Origin: Candidatus Zixiibacteriota bacterium
Lineage (GTDB): Bacteria > Zixibacteria > MSB-5A5 > RBG-16-43-9
Assembly: GCA_022865345.1 (NCBI GenBank)
Contig: JALHSU010000194.1
Span: 9,249-73,248 of the forward strand
Direction: 5' to 3'
Length of the DNA stretch: 64,000 nucleotides
Below, piece by piece: positions 30,755 through 30,862 of the stretch (within the stretch, counting starts at the first letter, position 1; each line of letters opens with the position of its first letter). The notes beneath the pieces were generated by a model that worked only from the letters and a program-made list of their open reading frames with translations, was not told where the DNA came from and did no database searches. The position numbers and the translations under genes are program-made.

Positions 30755-30862
30755 CGAACTCATCCCCTAACCCCTTCTCTTAATAAGAGAAGGGGGATAC
30801 AAGTCCCCCTCTTTTTAAGAGAGGCCTGTCCCGCCAACGGCGGGGGATTCAGGGTGAGTTCG
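30755..30862. repeat. Correia-like nested palindromic element P, copy 1 (TIR cgaactcatcccc ... ggggattcagggtgagttcg, with internal hairpins A, B and C)
   Basis: Terminal inverted repeats. Hairpin A is ccccttctctt-aataa-gagaaggggg and hairpin B is ccccctcttttt-aagagagg. A third hairpin cccgcc-aacg-gcggg is inserted. It sits in the 5' leader of the kinase gene. Confidence 0.7.

Follow-up and report, generated by a model that had tools for sequence, protein, structure and literature searches.

What kind of element are the four short, hairpin-forming repeats that lie between the genes of a 64-kb stretch of contig JALHSU010000194.1, which belongs to a Candidatus Zixiibacteriota bacterium, and how did they come to be dispersed there? 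A preliminary description of this stretch (64,000 nucleotides, called the window below) had reported a dispersed and intergenic family of hairpin-forming repeats with small insertions nested in it. Both this general picture and the positions of the four copies (copies 1 to 4, listed in Table 1) hold up on direct reading of the sequence and in a motif scan. The family itself had not been recognised. We find that each copy has the unit architecture of the BoxC/PIT/triplex-motif (TM) repeats, with a core that is nearly that of the Escherichia coli repeats, and that repeats of this kind are associated across phyla with genes of the DUF559 family, whose products are predicted nucleases.

Every element is bounded by two arms, (C)GAACTCATCCCC on the left and GGGATT(C/T)AGGGTGAG(T/C)TC on the right, which enclose two hairpins with the stems CCCCTTCTCTT/AAGAGAAGGGG (hairpin A) and CCCTCTCTT/AAGAGAGGG (hairpin B). 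As had been claimed, the stems are kept while the loops vary (the spacers vary, too), and the extra GC-rich hairpins at different positions in copies 1 and 3 are real. When the 18-mer of the right arm was searched with up to 3 mismatches, 4 matches were obtained in the 64-kb window, compared with 0.02 expected from shuffled sequences, and a looser motif scan of the window yielded neither half copies nor whole copies beyond these four. All four fold into a three-way junction consisting of an outer stem and two hairpins, be it as DNA or as RNA, with z-scores of -5.4 to -7.4 against dinucleotide shuffles. The RNA folds reach -45 to -60 kcal/mol (z about -5 to -7).

Two three-block units of ~35-40 nucleotides (nt) stand back to back in every element, and in each unit a pyrimidine block is followed by a loop, the complementary purine block, a short linker and a third block rich in G and T. 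Hairpin B together with the right arm reads CCCTCTCTT-loop-AAGAGAGGG-ATTTA-GGGTGAGTT, and hairpin A with the left arm reads alike on the opposite strand. The third block of one unit is complementary to that of the other, and the two are identical with what had been described as terminal inverted repeats. A published example of the E. coli unit TMECO is CCCTCTCCC-TGT-GGGAGAGGG-TTA-GGGTGAGGG (PMC4666352); TMECO corresponds to BoxC (Bergler 1992) and to the PIT elements (Hoyne & Maher 2000, 2002), as set out by Holder et al. 2015 (PMC4666352). The core of the window elements, AAGAGAGGG-ATT(T/C)A-GGGTGAG, can be placed directly beside GGGAGAGGG-TTA-GGGTGAGGG of TMECO (Table 1 of PMC4666352); spelled out, GAGAGGG-(A)TT(T/C)A-GGGTGAG is nearly GAGAGGG-TTA-GGGTGAG. 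When purine block and third block were matched by hand in antiparallel orientation, all triads were of the allowed types (9/9 for hairpin B with the right arm and 11/11 for hairpin A with the left arm).

We also applied a generic three-block finder, which is independent of the sequence and requires that the third block runs antiparallel and forms only G·G, A·A and T·A triads. It recovered six of the eight half-units in the window, among them the unit of hairpin A and left arm in copy 1 (30759-30793, - strand), and the two that it missed are interrupted by the inserts. Its sole other match in 64 kb is a GC-rich inverted pair, with the unit CCCCTCCC-TTGAT-GGGAGGGG-ACA-GGGGAGGG on the + strand and the unit CCCCTCTCCCC-TGGT-GGGAGAGGG-TTA-GGGAGAGGGGG, almost TMECO, on the - strand. 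To judge from these units, the pair is a member of the same superfamily and of a different subfamily. In the cyanobacterium Kovacikia minuta, an element with 79% identity was found by a distant-mode plasmid search. Its core is GGGAGAGGG-ATTTA-GGGTGAGGG, its outer stem is GCCCTCA/TGAGGGC where the window family has GAACTCA/TGAGTTC, and its hairpin stems contain TCC/GGA in place of TCTT/AAGA; compensatory changes are present in all stems. It reads as an intermediate between the window family and E. coli BoxC. On the evidence of architecture and core sequence, we classify the window elements as paired BoxC/PIT/TM repeats, homologous to the E. coli units. The Rfam search that had been proposed for identifying the family led to unrelated models: nothing in the whole window reached a gathering threshold, and by E-value the best matches were chance-level miRNA models with ~20 bits against thresholds of 86-90. 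Integron attC sites were considered and rejected by eye, as the arms lack GTTRRRY/RYYYAAC cores and the copies are dispersed rather than lined up in cassette arrays.

The gene that accompanies these repeats was identified in comparison loci that we fetched, which are designated by L numbers; the taxonomic labels of the metagenome-assembled genomes (MAGs) among their sources may be wrong. An open reading frame (ORF) of ~125 amino acids (aa) stands between the two halves of an element in L036 (a Melioribacter roseus MAG) and in L116. The ORF matches Pfam PF04480 (DUF559) with E = 4e-29 and 5.5e-32, the NCBIfam YcjD model with E = 1.8e-17 (below the cut-off of that model) and PDB entry 3hrl, an “endonuclease-like protein”. 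A survey of PD-(D/E)XK proteins (PMC3424549) places DUF559 in one group with Vsr and the homing endonuclease I-Bth0305I, and by homology the protein associated with the repeats is a Vsr-fold PD-(D/E)XK nuclease related to E. coli YcjD. Thirteen of the loci that had been chosen by the repeat alone hold a DUF559 gene, which is always found directly beside or inside elements. When all ORFs located up to 250 nt from elements were compared with one another, the recurring families were DUF559 (11 loci), Ser/Thr kinases (7) and a family of 331 aa (3), and no transposase family recurred. A role of DUF559 in a defence system was not indicated, as PADLOC returned no meaningful match.

The association also holds when the search is started from the gene. 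A metagenome scan with an alignment of DUF559 proteins returned 80 loci. In 76 of these, repeat modules are no further than 350 nt from the gene, and in 55 of the 76 they flank it on both sides; the generic finder detected units in 77 of the same 80 loci. In ten plasmid DUF559 loci from other phyla, 24 units were found where shuffled sequences gave 0.02. These units are distributed over seven loci, from Synechocystis, two Deinococcus species, Photobacterium, Neisseria gonorrhoeae, Shinella and Sphingomonas; their sequences are lineage-specific, and all of them lie beside DUF559 or overlap it. As a control for specificity, 80 distant viral DUF559 loci (145 kb) were searched, and units, which adjoined the gene, were present in two. 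The association is thus specific to certain cellular DUF559 clades and not an artefact of the finder or of base composition.

In E. coli K-12 (NC_000913.3), the DUF559 gene is ycjD (1351407-1351760), and the unit listed as TMECO number 9 (1351204-1351239) lies 167 nt past its stop codon. The stop codon is overlapped by a degenerate BoxC-like hairpin, and the last ~47 nt of the gene are duplicated about 60 nt downstream, with TMECO number 9 following the duplicate. The text of PMC4666352 mentions neither ycjD nor DUF559 nor “endonuclease”. In open-access papers we found no report of a link between BoxC and DUF559; it may have been noted elsewhere.

Some further observations were made at the gene-bearing and element-bearing loci. 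In Synechocystis (L204, 665-1132) and Sphingomonas (L212, 518-1054), the coding sequences annotated as endonuclease domain-containing or DUF559 proteins extend into the flanking repeats, and some of the annotated protein sequence probably results from translation of the repeat. The 331-aa ORF family occurs beside elements in L084 (6910-7905) and in two other loci; it presumably resembles Cas1. In Rosettibacter primus (L080, ~3260-4100, - strand), an array of a different short hairpin repeat stands beside a half element, and its translation repeats motifs such as “GIPQNDRKK”.

Gene and repeats occur in three arrangements. In the first, DUF559 stands between whole elements that have the same orientation; in most gene-bearing loci, the gene is flanked by whole elements. 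In the second arrangement the element is split, with left arm and hairpin A on one side of the gene and hairpin B and right arm on the other, or the reverse; the element ends are separated by the gene in this way in L036, L116 and L125. The third consists of tandem mini-palindromes of the form left arm - hairpin A - left arm. The arrangement follows the DUF559 tree, so that gene and flanks are inherited together. In one clade (L062, L172, L178 and L187), the similarity between loci covers exactly element, gene and element (~560-600 nt) and ends at the outer repeat ends; repeat, DUF559 and repeat thus form a discrete unit that is found in different contexts. The gene has become a pseudogene in L101 and L103.

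Alleles with and without the gene are found at the site of copy 1, the leader of a Ser/Thr kinase gene. The first nine kinase codons (27 nt) are directly repeated on either side of copy 1 there, once as a pseudo-start and once as the real start of the gene, and the same order of pseudo-start, element and real start is present in at least six loci of Zixibacteria- and Ignavibacteria-labelled MAGs. In the window and in these loci, the site is occupied by a solo copy. In L103 (2150-2900) and L187 (1000-2000), which come from an Ignavibacteria MAG and a metagenome contig, it is occupied by an array of elements, DUF559 and a further element, placed between pseudo-start and real start. Solo element and whole array are bracketed by the 27-nt repeat alike. 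Such an alternation would be expected from recombination between the flanking copies or from gain of the gene by homing.

We give a probability of roughly 60% to the following explanation: the four elements are solo, gene-less copies of BoxC-type repeats, and these repeats are selfish, are associated with a DUF559 nuclease and spread via breaks or nicks that the nuclease makes. As to the action of DUF559 on the repeats and the mode of copy movement, we infer a scheme in which the nuclease would recognise its cognate repeat, folded or as a duplex, and would break or nick the DNA at or beside it. Repair of the break by copying from another repeat copy could then lead to spread to new sites, to gene conversion, or to both, and homogenisation and spread of the repeats within a genome would depend on these breaks or nicks. 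Solo copies may arise when recombination between directly repeated flanking copies deletes the gene, or through action of the nuclease in trans. An effect on neighbouring transcripts would be a by-product, and the close linkage with a nuclease gene suggests a DNA-level element. Vsr nicks at T-G mismatches, and the outer stem of the folded element contains a T-G pair that is retained in 48 of 54 aligned copies; together with the mismatch specificity of Vsr this conserved pair is a lead only. A wider proposal is that BoxC/PIT/TM repeats across bacteria are the cognate DNA of DUF559 nucleases, and that the two make up an undescribed, nuclease-driven selfish system which co-evolves lineage by lineage and which would parallel REP/RAYT, with another enzyme fold and a three-block DNA structure as its basis. 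We advance it tentatively and rate its chances somewhat below even.

Several results weigh against a selfish, nuclease-driven repeat. The 64-kb window holds no DUF559 gene, and none was present in the fetched pieces of a Calditrichota MAG that has dozens of copies. The strict finder gave no unit in three of the ten plasmid DUF559 loci. Among the fetched loci there was no clean empty site for a dispersed copy, and only tandem copy numbers differed. Direct repeats in the flanks were no stronger than in controls, except at tandem arrays and at the kinase-site copies, so target duplication is confined to these and is not a general feature of the family. With neither a general duplication nor an empty site, the case for mobility is drawn from the multiplicity of the copies and their varied context. 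One DUF559 clade (L151, L154 and L160) has a conserved genomic context and ycjD of E. coli is a single gene, both of which would suit a host or domesticated enzyme equally well, and mobilisation of repeats by Vsr-fold nucleases is not known.

The main rival of the selfish reading is that the repeats are structural motifs maintained by the host, and that DUF559 is a host enzyme which processes or repairs them, its gene having been placed there by shared regulation or by instability. The annotation of ycjD as a single chromosomal gene with BoxC nearby and the conserved context of the L151 clade would suit such an enzyme, as would the retained T-G wobble in the outer stem, which is a mismatch type that Vsr recognises. 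TM loci are moreover sites of genomic instability in E. coli (PMC4666352). However, a host enzyme would not lead one to expect that repeat, gene and repeat recur as a discrete unit in unrelated contexts, that DUF559 pseudogenes are found, that near-identical repeats are spread over several phyla, or that the kinase site holds either a solo copy or a gene-bearing array. These are features typical of selfish horizontal DNA, and we consider the host-enzyme explanation unlikely.

The distribution of the family was determined by scanning contigs of one genome per species with an 18-nt pattern of the right arm; copy numbers per genome are lower bounds. At least 120 stretches matched, about a dozen of which are chance matches in GC-rich coding DNA, and the stems are conserved in the other copies. 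Among the matches listed, the carriers are Zixibacteria, Ignavibacteria/Melioribacteraceae, Calditrichota, Bacteroidota, Eisenbacteria and a few others. One Calditrichota MAG has the element on dozens of contigs, and the carrier that is an isolate is Rosettibacter primus. Carriage by phages was rejected, as 2.9 million viral contigs gave no exact match. Identity of the main element with cyanobacterial miniature inverted-repeat transposable elements (MITEs) or SDR elements was considered and rejected, since the window shares synteny with Zixibacteria MAGs and the scan placed the element in Zixibacteria, Ignavibacteria, Calditrichota and Bacteroidota.

In total, 143 complete copies were collected (135 unique, canonical length 78-92 nt), and none of the 105 complete copies in genome loci overlaps a long ORF. 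In an alignment of 54 sequences, 96.3% of the cells in the three helices are paired, and changes on both sides of a pair were seen in only 8 of 1614 cells. G-T and A-C mismatches (39 vs 27) give no strand signal. Relative to the neighbouring genes, the two orientations are represented by 86 and 55 copies, which is a mild bias among copies that are not independent. The earlier claim of structure-constrained evolution has to be qualified: covariation is seen only between lineages, when the window family is compared with cyanobacteria, E. coli, Deinococcus and others, and within the family of Zixibacteria, Ignavibacteria and Calditrichota the stems are retained as sequence. Covariation as a proof of RNA structure was rejected, because the variation within the family is too small and there is no strand asymmetry.

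These figures bear on the possibility that the elements are transcribed cis-regulatory RNAs, i.e. RNase III substrates or stability or attenuation elements that are selected in leaders and 3' regions. Copies 1 to 3 do lie on a transcribed strand, with a terminator-like hairpin or the preceding gene on one side and the next start codon on the other, the elements fold very stably as RNA, one orientation is in mild excess relative to the neighbouring genes, and the kinase-leader arrangement is kept across diverged kinase loci. For an RNA, however, one would not expect stems that hardly ever change in a compensatory way within the family, mismatch types without strand asymmetry, or copies that occur in both orientations, in tandem arrays and, as copy 4 does, between convergent genes. 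No Rfam family threshold was reached, E. coli PIT elements had neither promoter nor terminator activity in earlier experiments (reported in PMC4666352), and the dominant association is with a nuclease gene. We regard an RNA role as the primary function as improbable. Less probable still is a classical MITE, that is, an internally deleted derivative of an insertion sequence (IS) moved by a conventional transposase that recognises terminal inverted repeats: inverted ends, small size, high copy number and the ends split by a gene in L036, L116 and L125, as in an autonomous element, would agree with it, but the enclosed gene is DUF559 and not a known transposase, no transposase family recurs beside the elements (which also speaks against a fragment of an IS terminus, the alternative raised earlier), whole elements rather than split ends flank most gene-bearing loci, target-site duplication was not found, and what had been taken for “inverted repeats” is a pair of third blocks, one from each BoxC-type unit.

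Orthologous sequences show how long the copies have been in place. The window is Zixibacteria-like, with 90-92% identity over ~5 kb to a contig of Zixibacteria RBG_16_43_9 (L052) and 85% identity over ~7 kb to a contig of another MAG (L026). Copies 2 and 3 are present at orthologous positions in L026 and copy 4 in L052. Copy 2 is 91% identical to its ortholog while its flanks cannot be aligned, copy 4 differs from its ortholog by a few bases only, and both are at least as conserved as the surrounding intergenic DNA. The window copies are old intergenic insertions, and something maintains their sequence; the conservation of copies 2 and 4 is compatible with homogenisation between copies or with selection. 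Beside copy 4, L052 has ~220 nt of other hairpin repeats (~4260-4480), which are absent from the window (47747).

The small inserts have a history of their own. The 24-nt insert of copy 3 is missing in the orthologous element of L026 and is thus a presence/absence polymorphism, caused by an independent insertion or deletion. Inserts of this type (GC hairpin plus ATCTTCGAC) are located within hairpin A also in L020, L038, L043 and L051, and outside the element in L115 (about 5030-5075) and L120 (- strand); the insert type of copy 1, which follows AAGAGAGG, recurs in L050 and L101. Mini-elements of 21-24 nt are found at the same positions in several phyla and also inside an unrelated hairpin, and the GC-hairpin inserts behave like very small nested repeats of a class of their own.

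Table 1. Coordinates and strands of the repeat elements and associated features in the window
Feature	Position	Strand	Remarks
Copy 1	30755-30862	+	direct reading, motif scan, folding
Copy 1, left arm	30755-30767		
Copy 1, hairpin A	30771-30795		
Copy 1, hairpin B	30805-30824		
Copy 1, GC-hairpin insert	30825-30845		~21 nt, after hairpin B
Copy 1, right arm	30846-30862		
Copy 2	38791-38878	+	canonical form, without insert
Copy 2, first three-block unit	38794-38828	-	generic finder
Copy 2, second three-block unit	38841-38875	+	generic finder
Copy 3	39541-39651	+	
Copy 3, mini-element	39565-39588		24 nt, CCCCGCCTTTGGCGGGATCTTCGA, within hairpin A
Copy 4	47779-47864	-	inverted; between convergent genes
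Kinase pseudo-start	30862-30888	-	ATGCTGGGCAAAAAAATTTCACATTAC (MLGKKISHY), abuts right arm of copy 1
Real start of Ser/Thr kinase gene	30708-30734	-	ATGATTGGCAAAACAATTTCGCATTAC (MIGKTISHY), 20 nt beyond left arm of copy 1
Block shared by right flanks of copies 1 and 3, copy 1 side	30863-30960	-	~100 nt upstream of pseudo-start
Shared block, copy 3 side	39652-39742	-	includes decayed pseudo-start AGGCTGGGGAAAACCATATCACAGTCT
Second BoxC-like inverted pair	63250-63330	both	GC-rich; intergenic; generic finder
Heptamer (CTACTGT) sites	31088-31169, 39750-39808, 27785-27811		
Small dispersed repeat pair	27705-27752, 40598-40746, 47625-47692		AGTTGCTCGATTCATCGAGC + CCYRATAAATYRGGCAACTACA; intergenic
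100-nt direct repeat	13940-14039, 15208-15307		81% identical, copies 1.27 kb apart

According to Pfam and ORF calls, copy 1 is located between uvrA, which it follows, and a Ser/Thr kinase-TPR gene, whose ATG is 20 nt away. Copy 2 stands between a SnoaL-like gene and hemW, 50 nt past the stop codon of the former and 162 nt before the latter, and copy 3 lies 69 nt upstream of the SnoaL-like gene, with a signal peptidase gene on its other side. Copy 4 is flanked by convergent Mut7-C and GH57 genes. Three copies had been assigned to the leaders of the kinase gene, of hemW and of a lipoprotein gene; the last of these is the SnoaL-like gene by Pfam. Terminator-like hairpins of the upstream genes precede copies 1 and 3. 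Decayed kinase pseudo-starts also adjoin the right arm of copy 3 and, by direct reading, copies 2 and 4. The block of ~100 nt that copies 1 and 3 share in their right flanks means that the duplicated unit exceeds the core element. On the minus strand, this block begins with TTGACA and finishes in the kinase pseudo-start, and a consensus scan called no sigma-70 promoter in it.

Other small repeats are also present between the genes of the window. The terminator-like hairpin GGGCGAGGAAACCTCGCCC is found after uvrA and after the signal peptidase gene, each time with a few CTACTGT heptamers in a row behind it, and a run of the heptamer alone follows the kinase gene. A small dispersed repeat pair is present at three intergenic sites, and its first half is a terminator-like hairpin. 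A longer direct repeat of 100 nt is listed in Table 1.

What is new in these results is the association of DUF559 with the repeats, whereas the repeats are already known in kind. BoxC/PIT/TM repeats are reported from hundreds of bacterial genomes and have been unexplained since 1992, with no known origin, function or mobility factor, and mobility activity was never found beside TM repeats (PMC4666352). DUF559, on its part, is a very large family, with E. coli YcjD among its members, and is uncharacterised. The cross-phylum link provides both with a concrete hypothesis, which can be tested in E. coli itself and which, if true, would extend the REP/RAYT paradigm of nuclease-associated repeats to a second class of enzymes. 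For the annotation of genomes, it explains the odd N- and C-terminal extensions of “endonuclease domain-containing proteins” such as those in L204 and L212, as well as recurrent hairpins in leaders.

How do the elements compare with known repeat systems? Correia elements, ERIC and BIME had been named as similar in architecture. Correia and ERIC elements are likewise small, intergenic and hairpin-forming, are often located within transcription units and have terminal inverted repeats. As an identity, however, this likeness does not stand: the elements described here have no known relationship to them in sequence, have no TA or other target duplication, spread across phyla and are organised internally as two three-block units. 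The SDR elements of Nostoc, which are reportedly very small nested mobile repeats, resemble the 21-24-nt inserts: these, too, are nested in other repeats, are present or absent between relatives and use the same spots. Their sequences and hosts differ, and the likeness is limited to the inserts and does not include the main element.

The closest match is with the E. coli BoxC/PIT/TM repeats, which share the three-block architecture, a near-identical core, the intergenic location, the high copy number and the wide occurrence in bacteria, and which also form inverted pairs of two slightly different unit types (PMC4666352). The window family differs in that the distal stem positions are AT-shifted in all three blocks together (C-G·G to T-A·T), and in that the paired form dominates, folds into a three-way junction and contains nested mini-hairpins. 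While no mobility gene has been reported near TMs (PMC4666352), DUF559 is a regular neighbour here.

REP/BIME repeats and their RAYT genes have the same overall layout, with dispersed intergenic palindromes that outnumber the gene, a small nuclease-type gene flanked by its own repeats, and an own repeat variant for each gene lineage. This is a match of architecture only (76/80 metagenome loci and 13 genome loci): the partner here is a DUF559 PD-(D/E)XK protein (PF04480) instead of a RAYT of the HUH/Y1 IS200/IS605 type, there is no GTAG/CGTC tag, and a third block is present besides the hairpin. With the homing endonuclease I-Bth0305I (EDxHD, Vsr-like; PMC3239194), DUF559 shares the class of nuclease fold and a small gene in or beside a conserved sequence, and, as with homing endonuclease genes in general, one and the same site is found with or without the gene in different genomes. 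In contrast to these genes, DUF559 lies outside introns and inteins, its position relative to the repeat varies by clade, and its product is a predicted nuclease. By analogy, the system would thus combine an architecture that resembles REP/RAYT with a mechanism that resembles homing.

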